From a virus (lineage: Duplodnaviria > Heunggongvirae > Uroviricota > Caudoviricetes): a DNA stretch of 29,363 nt. The DNA is taken from IMG/VR virus record IMGVR_UViG_3300029566_000323, one strand, 5' to 3'. The notes beneath the pieces are model-generated. The model did no database searches and was not told the origin of the DNA. It saw only the letters and a program-made list of their open reading frames with translations. Shown in pieces: positions 355 to 12,705 of the stretch; position 1 is the stretch's first letter, and the number at the start of each line of letters is the position of its first letter. A program made the translations under genes and the position numbers.

Positions 355-412
355 AAAAAGGGTGGCAGAGCAGTCACGGAGTAGAACTGATGCCACCAAA
401 GACTACACATGG
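355..412 (-). ncRNA. dicF: DicF small RNA (ftsZ-targeting sRNA variant)
   Basis: Reverse complement reads ...TTTGGTGGCATCAGTTCTACTCCGTGACTGCTCTGCCACCCTTTTT, a close variant of remembered DicF including the GGTGG/CCACC stem and U-run 3' end; lies immediately upstream of dicB on the same strand as in Qin. Ends approximate. Confidence 0.75.
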
Positions 413-6965: not shown

Positions 6966-7331
6966 ATGGCACTGACGAAAAAACAACGTGCAGAATTGCG
7001 CATGAAGTTTGGCGGTCGCTGTGCTTATTGCGGCTGTGAACTTGGCGAAAAGTGGCATGCAGACCATGTAAAACCGGTCATTCGTTTTAATGGAAATATG
7101 CTTCACCAGGAACGTGACGATATATCCAACATGGTTCCGGCATGCCACCCATGCAATCTGCACAAGCATTGCAGTAGCCTGGAAGACTATCGGCGAATTA
7201 TCAGTGATGGTCGTCGTGAATTCCTTGCGTCCGGGAAAGGCAAAGCGCTGGTTCGTATGGGATTGGTTGAAATGAAATCTGACCCGGTTGTGTTCTGGTT
7301 TGAAAAATATCAAGAAGGGGCTACAGCATGA
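6966..7331 (+). CDS. HNH endonuclease
   Basis: Motifs CAYCGCEL…HADHVKP…MVPACHPCNLHKH (Cys pairs flanking HNH histidines/asparagine); AAGGAG RBS; stop overlaps next start. Confidence 0.85.
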   Translation: MALTKKQRAELRMKFGGRCAYCGCELGEKWHADHVKPVIRFNGNMLHQERDDISNMVPACHPCNLHKHCSSLEDYRRIISDGRREFLASGKGKALVRMGLVEMKSDPVVFWFEKYQEGATA

Positions 7332-8314
7332 CCACTATTACCAATAAGAAACAGTATCCCAGCGAGCAATATCTTAATGAGCTTATCACCAACATAGAGT
7401 TTGCTGCAAGGGCACCAGTTGAAGTCGTGAGCGCAATGGCAGCAGAGCTACAGAAGCGGCGCGAAGCTGATAGCGCAGAACCAGTTGCTTATATTTTCAA
7501 ACATCCGGCCGGGAAATTATTCTGGGCTTTAACGGATGAAAGCAATAAAGAGCAAGCGGACGTTATTCCTGTTTATGCCGCCCCTCCAGTGCCAGTAGTA
7601 TCTGAAGAAAAACCAATGCCTAACCCTCTTAAAATGTACGCGGTCGATGATGTTGCCGCTATTGCAGAGGTGAGAGGCTGGAATGCCTACCGCGCCGCCA
7701 TGCTTCAGAGTCAGGGGGAAGGCAACCCTCATGTAACCCCGGCTCGCCTGCCTGGTGGTTTCACCATTGAGGATGCGAAGGTGTTACATGAAGACCTTGT
7801 ACGTAGCCACATAAGCCAGGCTTTAAGTGGCGAAAAGATGAAAAAGAAAGATCGCGATGCTGATTTGCGCTGGATTCATGGCGTAATAGTTCAGGCCGCG
7901 TGGTTTGTAAAGGCATCACTGGAGCAGAATGCACTATCGGGCAACTCTCCGGTAATTCCTGGTGAGGTGTTGTCCGCAATCCGGGAGGTTGCCAGGATTC
8001 GCGCCGATTTCGATGATTTTGACGGTGACAGGCGAGGTATCGGTGATTGTCTGGATGAGGCCGAGCAAGAGCTTATCGTTACCATTAACAAATATGCCAG
8101 TCAGTTGGCAGTAGAGCCGGTAGTACCTGATGACGTTCTGGAACAGACAGTAGCGTCGCCAGCGCTAGGTAACCAGGTTAGCGAATTAACAATGTGGGTT
8201 AAACGACTGGTCAGTCAACTGAAAAAAGCTCAGCCGGACTGCAAATTACCGGAGAAGGCGATGGATTACCTGAAACGAAATGGACTGATAAGCGTGGAGG
8301 ATGTTTTACGATGA
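7328..8314 (+). CDS. Hypothetical prophage protein (328 aa), N-terminal module paralogous to 6557-6964
   Basis: ATG overlaps HNH stop (ATGA); contains AEPVAYIFKHPAGKLFW…VYAAPPVPVVSEE matching the 135-aa protein; C-terminal 230 aa unrecognised. Confidence 0.75.
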   Translation: MTTITNKKQYPSEQYLNELITNIEFAARAPVEVVSAMAAELQKRREADSAEPVAYIFKHPAGKLFWALTDESNKEQADVIPVYAAPPVPVVSEEKPMPNPLKMYAVDDVAAIAEVRGWNAYRAAMLQSQGEGNPHVTPARLPGGFTIEDAKVLHEDLVRSHISQALSGEKMKKKDRDADLRWIHGVIVQAAWFVKASLEQNALSGNSPVIPGEVLSAIREVARIRADFDDFDGDRRGIGDCLDEAEQELIVTINKYASQLAVEPVVPDDVLEQTVASPALGNQVSELTMWVKRLVSQLKKAQPDCKLPEKAMDYLKRNGLISVEDVLR

Positions 8315-8434
8315 ATATTTAGACTAAAGAGTTTGTAACGCTATGTAAGTGATTTTTTCTGGTTTAGATATTTATATGTCCGGCCAAATTGAGGTGTGTT
8401 TAAATGTTATTGCACATTGATTGTAGGGGGAATA

Positions 8435-8614
8435 ATGAAAAACGCATTGCAGTTTTTGTTTGTTGCGTTCTGGTTGTTCGCATCATGTATGCCCATCATC
8501 TTCACAGCAAGGTATATGGAAAAAATTGATGTTTTGATATTAATGTTTGGACATATAAATGCCCTTTTTTTAGGGGTGTTCATGGCGGTCATGTGCATTG
8601 AATACTGGCGGTAA
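8435..8614 (+). CDS. Small hydrophobic protein (59 aa, two predicted TM helices)
   Basis: AGGGGGAA RBS 4 nt before ATG 8435; product MKNALQFLFVAFWLFASCMPIIFTARYMEKIDVLILMFGHINALFLGVFMAVMCIEYWR has two hydrophobic stretches; lies in an AT-rich islet flanked by direct repeats. Confidence 0.45.
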   Translation: MKNALQFLFVAFWLFASCMPIIFTARYMEKIDVLILMFGHINALFLGVFMAVMCIEYWR

Positions 8615-8843
8615 ATACAGCGAACGCCATTGGTTTAGTTGGATATTTACTGTGCCGGACAAAAACGGTTTGCGGGGAAATCTTAGTTAAGTAGAATAAC
8701 TGCGGGTGCTTGAGGCTATCTGTCTCAGGCATGAACACCAAAAGGCAGATAGAGAAAAGCCCCAGTTAACATTACGCGTCCTGCAAGACGCTTAACATTA
8801 ATCTGAGGCCATATCTATGCGACACATAGAGATTAGCCTCTTA

Positions 8844-8890
8844 NNNNNNNNNNNNNNNNNNNNNNNNNNNNNNNNNNNNNNNNNNNNNNN
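8844..8890. other. Run of 47 N (assembly gap or masked bases)
   Basis: Literal n characters in the sequence; interrupts the hok-type toxin locus. Confidence 1.
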
Positions 8891-9027
8891 TGTTAATCGC
8901 CCTGATCGTCATCTGTTTAACCGTCATAGTGACGGCACTGGTAACGAGGAAAGACCTCTGCGAGGTACGAATCCGAACCGGCCAGACGGAGGTCGCTGTC
9001 TTCACAGCTTACGAACCTGAGGAGTAA
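8891..9027 (+). CDS. hokD: Hok-family type I toxin (HokD/RelF-like), 5' end hidden in the N run
   Basis: Translation after the gap reads LIALIVICLTVIVTALVTRKDLCEVRIRTGQTEVAVFTAYEPEE*, matching remembered HokD/RelF; upstream leader resembles hok mRNA 5' end; overlapping mok-like frame (8817-9020) also open. Confidence 0.8.
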
Positions 9028-9096
9028 GAGACCAGGCGAGGGAGAAATCCCTCGCCACCTCTGATGTGGCAGGCATCCTCAACGCACCCGCACTTA

Positions 9097-9120
9097 ACCC
9101 GCTTCGGCGGGTTTTTGTTT
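9097..9120 (+). terminator. Rho-independent terminator at 3' end of hok mRNA
   Basis: ACCCGC-TTCG-GCGGGT hairpin followed by TTTTTGTTTTT. Confidence 0.7.
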
Positions 9121-9243
9121 TTATTTTCAACGCATTTGAAGTTCTGGACGGTGCCGGAATAGAATCAAAAATACTTAAGTAGCGCGCAGGGATAAGAGGG
9201 ATGGTCCCTTAAAGGGGAGAGCTAATTATCCGGAAGGATTCTG

Positions 9244-9495
9244 ATGATGAACATCGAAGAACTGCGTAAAATTTTTTGTGAAGATGGCCTCTATGCTGTG
9301 TGCGTTGAAAATGGAAATATTGTTAGCCATTACCGCATTGTGTGTTTGCAAAAAAATGGGGCTGCGTTAATTAATTTTGTGGATGCCCGAGTGACGGACG
9401 GATTTATCTTGCACGACGGTGAGTTTGTCACTTCATTACAGGCATTGAAAGAGATCGGAATAAAAGCTGGCTTTTCTGCTTTTTCAGAAGAATAA
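9244..9495 (+). CDS. Small prophage protein (83 aa), possibly the Qin rem homologue by position
   Basis: GGAAGGA RBS, tandem ATG start; 83 aa and located between the hok locus and the DUF968 gene, the position and length of rem in Qin; identity by synteny only. Confidence 0.55.
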   Translation: MMNIEELRKIFCEDGLYAVCVENGNIVSHYRIVCLQKNGAALINFVDARVTDGFILHDGEFVTSLQALKEIGIKAGFSAFSEE

Positions 9496-12361: not shown

Positions 12362-12674
12362 AGGCTTTTTTATTTGTGGTAAATGGGCGGCTGGTGGGTG
12401 TGGTGGTTGTTGCTTTCCCGTTGCTGAAAAAGAAAACGCCAGACTGTTAGCCGGGTATCAGTTAGCGGGAGAAATTTTTAAATACTTCACAATTCAGGCG
12501 GTTGACTGTTGTCTGGTTTGCGGGGAGTTTGTTAAAAGAAACTGGCATGGTGAATCCCCCTGTGCGGAGGGGCAATCAGCGAGTAGGTATATGGGATAAT
12601 CGCGGATTCAGGTGCTGGTACTGAATTCACCGGGAGGCACCCGGCACCATGCAATGGCACATAGCGCCACTCTC

Positions 12675-12705
12675 CAGCCCCTCTCCGGAGGGGCTGTTTA
12701 TATTG
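12675..12705 (+). terminator. Terminator-like hairpin closing the structured noncoding stretch
   Basis: CAGCCCC-TCTCCGGA-GGGGCTG followed by TTTATATTGATTTT. Confidence 0.5.

Follow-up and report, generated by a model that had tools for sequence, protein, structure and literature searches.

The window, as we call the 29,363-nt stretch of phage DNA analysed here, probably carries two separate elements side by side: a hok/sok locus and, immediately upstream of it, a 346-bp accessory cassette resembling a moron and holding one real gene, which we term ORF59. An earlier sequence-only reading had joined the two, describing an AT-rich islet in which a small membrane ORF and a hok-type toxin locus are each preceded by a copy of one direct repeat. 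As an observation this is partly confirmed, because the islet, ORF59 and the hok locus are all there and the repeat is present but weak. As an interpretation it fares similarly: the small ORF is real, and the shared regulator or promoter module proposed for it and hok finds no support.

Two adjoining elements in a prophage nin region

The setting is the nin region of a Qin/lambdoid-type Escherichia coli prophage. GC content is 0.33–0.37 over 8275–8649 compared with 0.48–0.57 on the left side, which bears out the AT-rich islet. The phage gene to the left matches only PHROG families of unknown function; homology borders in other prophages show its last 27–49 codons (from 8168 or 8234) travelling together with the islet and hok module. 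Its stop is embedded in an ATGA (8311–8314), and the ATG of that motif is the start of an alternative 27-aa peptide in other alleles. The left-hand features are as follows.

7328–8314, + strand: upstream phage gene, 328 aa (ORF list)
8315–8660, + strand: AT-rich islet, 346-bp swap cassette (GC content, locus comparison)
8360–8388, + strand: repeat copy 1, TGGTTTAG ATATTTA TATGT CCGG C CAAA, 46 nt 5′ of the ORF59 ATG
8425–8430, + strand: Shine–Dalgarno sequence AGGGGG, 4 nt 5′ of the ORF59 ATG (from the sequence)
8435–8614, + strand: ORF59, 59 aa, MKNALQFLFVAFWLFASCMPIIFTARYMEKIDVLILMFGHINALFLGVFMAVMCIEYWR; ATG at 8435, stop at 8612–8614 (ORF list)
8605–8658, + strand: possible RNA hairpin over the ORF59 stop, the 3′ arm being repeat copy 2 (weak; −18.1 kcal/mol, z = −2.0)
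8631–8663, + strand: repeat copy 2, TGGTTTAG TTGG ATATTTA CTGTG CCGG A CAAA, at the right islet end, 6 nt before the hok −35

The right-hand element is a hok/sok locus of the hokD/hokW type that spans about 8670–9113. A masked run within it hides the start codon of hok and, to judge by the 933W annotation (sokW 1594–1664 on the minus strand, mokW 1656, hokW 1713), the promoter of sok as well; we filled this run in from a 100% identical locus, L001. Its parts are listed below.

8670–8697, + strand: hok promoter, −35 TTGCGG (8670–8675), 16-nt spacer, −10 TAGAAT (8692–8697) (hexamer scan)
8704–8861, + strand: hok mRNA leader, Rfam RF01794 ‘sok’ (81.1 bits, gathering score 59, full length 1–157)
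8753–8823, − strand: Sok antisense RNA, approximate, placed by alignment from 933W sokW
8817–8876, + strand: mok-type upstream ORF, 19 codons (identical locus L001 6619–6678; window ORF list)
8844–8890, no strand: masked run of N (from the sequence)
8872–9027, + strand: hok, HokD-type, 51 aa, MKQQKAMLIALIVICLTVIVTALVTRKDLCEVRIRTGQTEVAVFTAYEPEE (RefSeq hokD WP_000813254.1; L001 6674–6829)
9084–9113, + strand: 3′ fold-back element (9084–9096) and intrinsic terminator (9096–9113) plus T-tract (inverted repeat, terminator scan)

With its start codon masked, the hok start coordinate is good to ±1. The promoter fits an mRNA 5′ end at about 8703–8704, which is where the Rfam model starts, and its hexamers recur in 933W, in HannyBb and in the alleles that encode the 27-aa peptide; of the two hexamers proposed from the sequence alone, TAGAAT stands at 8692–8697, and TTGCGG lies one base to the right of 8669–8674, where it had been put. 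A 5′ element at 8697–8709 pairs with the 3′ element at 9084–9096 (tac/fbi-type; 13 nt, 92% complementary). Loci that match the window at 100% identity carry a hokD annotation in RefSeq, and the DNA of about 8661–9123 is 91–97% identical to annotated hok/sok loci. The leader match, the hokD annotation, the fold-back pairing and the terminator together uphold the call of a hok-type locus, and all of them, like the 51-aa Hok and the mok-type upstream ORF, are shared with known hok/sok systems. In 933W, MokW is 70 aa long and in-frame, whereas the mok-type ORF here has 19 codons, with a 3′ part masked in the window and a TGA that overlaps the hok ATG (ATGA). This half of the region is already known and holds nothing essentially new; ORF59 lies outside the hok/sok system as it has been described.

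Locus comparison indicates that the islet, 8315–8660, is a swap cassette and puts the start of the hok module proper near 8661. The site has an alternative occupant, an 82-bp segment that codes for a single-helix peptide of 27 residues, MTWPEAFTTAGIAMAVALVVYSICRWG, and both lie between identical flanks, TTTTACGATGA on the left and AAAAACGGTTTGCGGG on the right. Behind the same upstream-gene end, 76 loci carry the islet and 10 the short cassette; the latter keep an identical hok promoter, TTGCGG-16-TAGAAT. An empty site, as a deletion between the repeat copies might leave, was considered and discarded: no such allele was seen, and alleles lacking the islet carry only the 27-aa cassette. Truncated islets (L149, L161, H120) are insertion-sequence insertions or rearrangements.

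The islet runs on into the hok promoter and leader in 97 of the 98 sufficiently long loci, the exception being L149 with its insertion sequence at 8627, and the hok coding sequence sits at the expected offset in 74 of those 97. A classical moron comes with a promoter and a terminator of its own. As in lambdoid morons and nin-region accessory cassettes, the islet is short, deviates in GC from its surroundings (about 0.5), is present or absent at a fixed site and, like morons, carries a single small gene dispensable to the phage. Unlike classical morons, it shows no promoter or terminator recognisable in consensus scans, and the alternative occupant of its site is also a small hydrophobic peptide.

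ORF59 as a protein-coding gene

Several lines of comparative evidence indicate that ORF59 is a genuine protein-coding gene whose frame has been held over a long divergence. Most of them rest on a paralogue (P0037/P0042) located in an E. coli prophage remnant at the Rac site, with a hok fragment behind it; homology between its locus and the window reaches from the upstream-gene end across the islet as far as the 3′ half of hok (score 44.5, against 10.3 ± 1.4 for shuffles). First, the paralogous protein also has 59 residues and aligns without gaps at 44% identity (phmmer E = 4.8e-10), at a DNA identity of 60% with zero indels over 180 nt. In 20,000 unconstrained simulations with the same 72 differences, the ORF was kept in 0.34% and the protein identity reached in 0.035%, and no simulation achieved both. 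Second, between the subfamilies dN is 0.44 and dS 2.34 (dN/dS 0.19), and codon positions 1, 2 and 3 are identical at 35, 43 and 30 of 60, the second position being the most conserved. Third, among the six frames only that of ORF59 is stop-free in both loci; it has 27 of 60 translated positions in common (26 of 59 residues plus the stop), and the other five have 15–18. Fourth, a Shine–Dalgarno sequence precedes the gene in both subfamilies, with G8428A turning AGGGGG into AGGAGG in 55 of 114 loci, and ORF59 is intact in 113 of 115 loci (about 98%), a sample fetched by flank pattern and so not selected on ORF59.

These results make it unlikely that ORF59 was never, or is no longer, functional and is merely a chance open frame in an AT-rich spacer carried along with hok. 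Such a reading would sit well with the RefSeq pipeline making no ORF59 call, with the family having no distant homologues, with every ORF59 polymorphism being nonsynonymous and with phage records annotating an antisense ORF in its place. That antisense ORF, called ‘hornerin’ or ‘hypothetical’ in three phage records, fails as a competitor: its stop codon is polymorphic (8408 T/A), and stops interrupt the minus-strand frames in one subfamily or in both. The small ORF is thus not noise, in line with the sequence-only reading, and is a conserved two-helix membrane-peptide gene physically linked to hok.

Present-day variation has a different character. Within the subfamilies we counted 14 nonsynonymous substitutions (10 + 4) and 0 synonymous ones, a pattern with a neutral probability of 0.014–0.044, and to judge from the sequences this polymorphism does not look like ongoing purifying selection. 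Public protein sets contain frameshift variants at the T-run 8565–8572 (P0020, P0023 and P0025), and the conserved His40 is replaced by Tyr in about half of the alleles. A reported 52%-identical relative, L086 (strain ECMA0423), proved to be the same locus in an indel-ridden assembly; L210 is a similarly noisy sequence.

ORF59 is predicted to be a helical-hairpin inner-membrane protein with both termini inside (N-in/C-in). Its hydropathy profile has two maxima (Kyte–Doolittle 19-residue means of 2.1 and 2.15; GRAVY 1.2), and its AlphaFold2 model has helices at residues 2–24 and 30–58 (mean pLDDT 73), in agreement with the two-helix membrane ORF first noted at 8435–8614. The N terminus is basic, the C terminus carries an ExWR motif, and the inter-helix loop is neutral in the window subfamily and acidic in the paralogue.

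The window-type islet occurs in 1,570 of 5,426 complete E. coli genomes (about 29%, at least 95% identity) and the paralogous subfamily in 1,045 of the 5,426 (about 19%). Loci identical to the window at 100% are found in ST131-type genomes, and CFT073 has a 98% identical islet with ORF59 at NC_004431.1 1337863–1338042. Outside E. coli and Shigella the family is absent, and only its two subfamilies were recovered by exhaustive phmmer against 1.84 billion representatives, a profile search of 5.8 billion proteins and tblastn against phages and plasmids. ORF59 matched no curated family in Pfam, PHROGs, NCBIfam, PADLOC or PDB sequences, and Foldseek against viral models gave only non-specific fold matches (E ≥ 0.6). 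RefSeq lists no feature at the site; GenBank and UniProt entries for the protein read ‘membrane protein’ or ‘hypothetical protein’. K-12 does not have the islet, which is probably why ORF59 escaped the K-12 small-protein catalogues.

The hokW paper and a 2026 Hok survey preprint (10.1101/2025.08.07.668861) leave the neighbouring small membrane ORF unmentioned, and no mention of ORF59 was found in these two, in the CFT073 small-proteome preprint or in Pro-SMP finder. A literature search covering sources in part returned no transcript, ribosome-profiling or proteomic report of ORF59. SMP7 of the CFT073 study, considered as a candidate, differs from ORF59 in coordinates and length. What results is a conserved small membrane-protein gene with two subfamilies, omitted by the reference annotation pipeline and in no curated family. 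It occupies a defined swap site directly before a toxin promoter, and the other allele of that site likewise codes for a tiny transmembrane peptide; this makes it a cheap and well-defined target for small-protein work.

Possible roles of ORF59

ORF59 has no promoter or terminator of its own that consensus scans recognise and is co-oriented with all its neighbours, so its transcripts most likely arise by read-through in the rightward early operon. Its expression would be low or absent in the lysogen and higher on induction. Translated from the AGGGGG or AGGAGG site, the protein would insert into the inner membrane with both termini inside and may act there as a small membrane effector, for which exclusion, lysis timing and membrane perturbation are candidate roles.

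The suggestion of a second type I toxin–antitoxin system, with ORF59 as a toxin curbed by an antisense or divergent small RNA, strikes us as rather unlikely, and the sequence scans returned no positive evidence for it. The type I toxins described so far are single-helix proteins; two helices are predicted for ORF59. A search opposite the small ORF for the antisense RNA that this idea calls for found, on the minus strand of 8200–9300, neither a sigma-70-like promoter (at least 9/12) nor a terminator; a relaxed scan of either strand (at least 8/12) gave no promoter conserved between the paralogous loci, the islet has no Rfam match even at E ≤ 1, and the minus-strand fold z-score is −1.3, although an atypical RNA could escape consensus scans of this kind. 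The likeness to type I toxins such as Hok, Ldr, TisB, Ibs, ShoB and ZorO (Fozo et al. 2010, PMC2887945) is one of size class, high hydrophobicity, narrow distribution, frequent omission from annotation and residence in a prophage, here next to a type I locus, and does not extend to sequence, as ORF59 resembles neither Hok nor any toxin family. The frameshift alleles and the excess of amino-acid-changing substitutions could mean selection to blunt a toxin; however, the paralogue is intact in its ~19% of E. coli genomes, within a decayed remnant and with no evident partner.

RNA structure gives this idea little more. A 7-nt inverted repeat that brackets ORF59 (8378–8384 and 8654–8660; z of about −2 in the window) loosely recalls the 5′–3′ pairing of hok mRNA, but neither this bracket stem nor the hairpin at 8605–8658 was found conserved when looked for in the paralogue, where the equivalent of the hairpin has z = −0.7. 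The hairpin has no U-tract and is therefore not an intrinsic terminator. Both structures are unproven.

Also rather doubtful, in our view, is a functional two-gene membrane module, in which ORF59 would serve as a second toxin released on induction or as a modulator of Hok (immunity, insertion or pore formation). Were it true, it would give the hok family something new, a protein partner for its type I toxin. Three observations would fit such a module: each of the two diverged ORF59 subfamilies has remained beside a hok locus, the site's other occupant is a small transmembrane peptide too, and the all-amino-acid-changing polymorphism could reflect diversifying selection.

Class II holins and pinholins are phage-encoded proteins of about 60–70 residues with two transmembrane helices, and ORF59 resembles them in size, phage origin and its two predicted helices. 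It differs in lying in the nin region, outside the lysis cassette, and in having no Pfam, PHROG or specific fold match. The annotated class II holin of the prophage itself lies about 5 kb downstream of ORF59.

The two repeat copies

The repeat copies sit inside the cassette on the two sides of ORF59, where they most likely reflect cassette history or chance AT-rich similarity; at best, they could serve as arms in local RNA structure. Three sub-motifs recur in equal order, TGGTTTAG (8360–8367 and 8631–8638), ATATTTA (8368–8374 and 8643–8649) and CCGGnCAAA (8380–8388 and 8655–8663), with a 4-nt insertion, two 1-nt shifts and about 26 matched positions. The gapped local alignment scores 15.5 against 9.3 ± 1.65 for dinucleotide shuffles, 8 of 2,000 of which reach 15.5, a figure uncorrected for the 29-kb scan. 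The similarity reported from the sequence alone is thus present, at a weak level. That ORF59 and hok are each preceded by a copy holds for position only, since both copies lie inside the islet 8315–8660; the alleles with the 27-aa peptide, having identical flanks and the same hok promoter, assign both copies to the islet and not to hok.

It is therefore very unlikely that the copies are binding sites (operator or UP-type) of one regulator of ORF59 and hok, or a duplicated promoter module, as the low shuffle count, the equal sub-motif order and an extended alignment that sets TTGAGG (8389–8394) opposite the hok −35 TTGCGG might suggest. Copy 2 is absent before the same hok promoter in the 27-aa-cassette alleles, and both there and in 933W, whose hokW also has this promoter, the sequence in its place is unrelated, with no significant similarity to either copy in the DNA upstream of hok (about 50–89% of shuffles reach the score). 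At the hok spacing, no acceptable −10 hexamer follows copy 1, the best being TTGAGG-18-CACATT at 7/12 and none reaching at least 8/12. Copy 1 also varies more than any other stretch of the islet, at 6 sites in 29 nt (8361, 8374, 8378, 8380, 8385 and, just after it, 8389), and its allelic changes fail to keep the two copies alike. When the repeats were aligned to homologous loci, copy 1 was unrecognisable in that of the paralogue, and this locus lacks an upstream/downstream repeat pair of its own (a score of 9.5, reached by 25% of shuffles). Short repeats in AT-rich inserts should accordingly be compared across loci before a regulatory function is assigned to them.

Two further identifications made by eye were set aside. 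PhoP-box half-sites are spaced 5 nt apart, and the PhoP-box-like GGTTTA...TATTTA of the copies has spacings of 2 and 6 nt. An alignment with 933W suggested that copy 2 might be left over from the 3′ terminus of the 27-aa gene, but its local alignment scores lie at the shuffle mean, 51–55% of shuffles reaching them, and copy 1 behaves likewise. In the paralogous locus, a partly conserved counterpart of copy 2 follows the stop codon of the paralogue (score 11.5–12.5).

A probable small coding gene beside hok

The window represents a Qin-like lambdoid prophage of E. coli. The sRNA genes DicF (360-411, minus strand) and STnc100 (12516-12705, plus strand), both Rfam matches at gathering score, place it in a Qin/dic-type prophage and, masked run aside, 8200-9300 is 100% identical to chromosomal prophages in many E. 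coli genomes, several labelled O25b:H4-ST131. The identical RefSeq locus, L001, reads ydaT-like, replication genes, several DUF genes, HNH endonuclease, hypothetical, a 558-bp gap, hokD, rem, DUF968, rusA and Q, all on the plus strand; our finding covers that annotation-free gap plus hokD.

The gap contains an AT-rich islet with a 59-aa ORF for a predicted two-helix membrane protein, ORF59 (8435-8614). This description, made from the sequence alone, is borne out by the GC profile (0.33-0.37 across 8275-8649 vs 0.48-0.57 upstream), the open frame, two hydrophobic maxima and an AlphaFold2 model from a seven-sequence alignment (helices 2-24 and 30-58, mean pLDDT 73). RefSeq annotates ORF59 in no matching locus, and three phage records have an antisense ORF annotated in its place. 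Of 5426 complete E. coli genomes, 1570 carry the islet, every time at ≥95% identity, so close relatives alone say little about whether ORF59 is coding.

An exhaustive phmmer search of 1.84 billion representatives returned a second subfamily (P0037/P0042) of 59 aa, aligning without gaps at 44% identity and sharing the motifs SCxPII, LMFG(H), NAL, GVF and IExWR. First, the subfamilies are 60% identical in DNA across 180 nt with no indel (35, 43 and 30 of 60 by codon position), with a dN/dS of 0.19. Second, ORF59 is the only frame free of internal stops in both loci, and translated positions common to both number 27 of 60 in this frame vs 15-18 in the other five. Third, in 20,000 simulations run without constraint at the same difference count, the ORF survived in 0.34% and the observed identity was attained in 0.035%, never both together. 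Both subfamilies carry a purine-rich ribosome-binding site, which a common polymorphism in the window subfamily changes from AGGGGG to AGGAGG. Finally, the 59-codon frame is kept in 113 of 115 loci fetched by flank pattern, a sample free of selection on ORF59 itself. We conclude that ORF59 codes for a protein, or did so until recently.

There is one counter-signal. Although divergence between the subfamilies shows the low dN/dS given above, all 14 substitutions segregating in ORF59 (10 in the window subfamily, 4 in the paralogue's) are nonsynonymous, with a neutral probability of zero synonymous changes of 0.014-0.044; the pattern points to relaxed selection, diversifying selection or chance. 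Tyr replaces the conserved His40 in about half of alleles, and T-run frameshift variants exist in public protein sets.

The paralogue, MRKILMYLCISIWIVISCVPIILTSEYLTEASIMALMFGHANALCIGVFISIIYIECWR, is intact in E. coli KC-Dl-1 (L211, 6130-6309), between ttcA and uspF, within the heavily decayed remains of a prophage at the Rac attachment site; 1045 of the 5426 genomes have this paralogue, which lacks RefSeq annotation. The 3′ half of a hok gene lies ~50 nt downstream. The locus is homologous to the window from ~8301, in the upstream-gene end, through the islet to ~8652 and, after a deletion, again in the 3′ half of hok (8940-9043), so the ORF59-hok adjacency is older than the subfamily split.

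Alternative cassettes upstream of the hok promoter

By its sequence hallmarks, the hok locus is unambiguous: an Rfam RF01794 match (8704-8861, 81 bits), pairing of the mRNA 5′ and 3′ ends (8697-8709 with 9084-9096), a terminator (9096-9113) and the promoter hexamers all uphold the earlier identification of a hok-type toxin locus. Such hok/sok loci are already described (PMC8621323; 10.1101/2025.08.07.668861). The masked run 8844-8890 (47 N; 48 bases in L001) covers the hok start codon, the end of mok and the sok promoter. Read from L001, a 19-codon mok-type ORF (8817-8876, L001 6619-6678) has a TGA overlapping the ATG of the 51-aa Hok; the 933W and L248 alleles have instead an in-frame N-terminal Hok extension, annotated as 70-aa MokW.

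Promoter and alternative cassette
8670-8675 and 8692-8697, plus strand: hok promoter, -35 TTGCGG, 16-nt spacer, -10 TAGAAT
8311-8314 and 8661-8668: window edges of the alternative cassette, found at L248 9313-9396 and in phage 933W (L207) at ~1419-1502

Among loci fetched by a pattern in the upstream-gene end (8267-8292), 76 carry the islet and 10 an 82-bp segment between exactly identical flanks (...TTTTACGATGA on the left, AAAAACGGTTTGCGGG... on the right). With the same flanks enclosing two contents, the islet (8315-8660) is one of a pair of cassettes that alternate at a swap site immediately 5′ of the hok promoter; the hok module begins at about 8661. The 82-bp segment encodes a single-helix 27-aa peptide, MTWPEAFTTAGIAMAVALVVYSICRWG, whose ATG overlaps the upstream-gene stop (ATGA, 8311-8314) and whose gene ends ~5 nt 5′ of the hok -35; only the ATG and a three-codon stub (ATG AAT ATT TAG) persist in the window. 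The peptide also lies, unannotated, upstream of hokW in 933W, there ending ...ANVGTVMAVVLVVYSICRWR, and forms the C-terminus of 121-aa DUF551 proteins; 1514 of the 5426 E. coli genomes contain the cassette DNA. Further upstream, the last 27-49 codons of the 328-aa gene (8168-8314) are common to otherwise unlike genes, several PHROG families match its tail only, and homology borders fall at 8168 and 8234, indicating a mosaic joint within that gene.

Of the 98 flank-pattern loci that are long enough, 97 have the hok promoter and leader next to the islet; the one that does not, L149, has an insertion sequence at 8627. The hok CDS follows at the expected offset in 74; the other 23 have the leader and no hok CDS within 1.1 kb, like the IS-interrupted, Qin-like phage PhiR42_1. 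In PhiR42_1 (L003, 3001-6633) and 23 IMG/VR loci, insertion sequences come after the leader and flxA-ydfV-relBE after them, the order of K-12 Qin, and their ORF59 allele carries A16V, I31V, M37I and H40Y. K-12 Qin has hokD-rem only and no islet. This arrangement suggests an origin of the Qin relBE-hokD operon through insertion into a hok leader that lay 3′ of such an islet; K-12 itself has lost the islet.

The type I toxin and shared-regulator readings

The sequence-only reading had offered ORF59 as a possible second type I toxin. We consider this improbable: promoter, terminator and Rfam scans turned up no antisense RNA opposite the ORF, with no promoter-like or terminator-like site on the minus strand of 8200-9300, no promoter common to the two paralogous loci in a relaxed scan of both strands, and nothing from Rfam within the islet at E ≤ 1. 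Searches of Pfam, PHROGs, NCBIfam, PADLOC and PDB sequences gave no hit for ORF59, and its fold matches are generic helical hairpins.

Blocks of the direct repeat
8360-8367 (copy 1) and 8631-8638 (copy 2): TGGTTTAG
8368-8374 (copy 1) and 8643-8649 (copy 2): ATATTTA
8380-8388 (copy 1) and 8655-8663 (copy 2): CCGGnCAAA

The repeat itself stood in part: three blocks recur in the same order, with a 4-nt insertion in copy 2. Aligned locally with gaps, the two upstream regions score 15.5 vs 9.3 ± 1.65 for dinucleotide shuffles (reached by 8 of 2000), a similarity above most shuffles, yet modest and post hoc. The proposed common regulator or duplicated promoter module did not hold up and is the least probable reading, because both copies lie within the cassette, hok promoters behind unrelated DNA carry the same hexamers, and copy 1, the islet's most variable part, has no counterpart in the paralogous locus, which has no repeat of its own. 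Variants in copy 1 do not preserve the likeness, and the short cassette is unlike either copy. Behind the paralogue's stop codon, copy 2 shows moderate conservation; in the window it can pair with the sequence around the stop codon (hairpin 8605-8658, z = -2.0), and the CCGG cores are mutually complementary (8378-8384/8654-8660), with conservation found for neither pairing. In our reading, the repeat is a relic or a chance product of AT-rich sequence rather than a common regulatory element.

A candidate accessory membrane protein

Lacking signals of its own and co-oriented with its neighbours, ORF59 probably shares the transcript of the rightward early operon, and would be translated from its own ribosome-binding site. 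Its charge distribution (basic N-terminus, neutral or acidic loop, C-terminal ExWR) suggests N-in/C-in insertion; at the membrane it may act in exclusion, in lysis timing or through a functional link with Hok. GenBank and UniProt label it only 'membrane protein' or 'hypothetical protein', and we found no mention of it in the searchable literature. ORF59 is best filed as a new, uncharacterised small phage accessory membrane protein. Its value lies in a clean addition to the annotation and a defined target for experiments rather than in a new kind of system.

Two minor observations concern the downstream side. The hok 3′ UTR and terminator (9036-9117) give a sub-threshold Rfam match to isrK, a Salmonella prophage sRNA (25.7 bits vs gathering 50, E = 0.003). 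The sole promoter-like site of at least 9/12 in 8200-9300, TTGAAG-18-TAGAAT (9136-9165), lies directly 5′ of rem (9244-9495).
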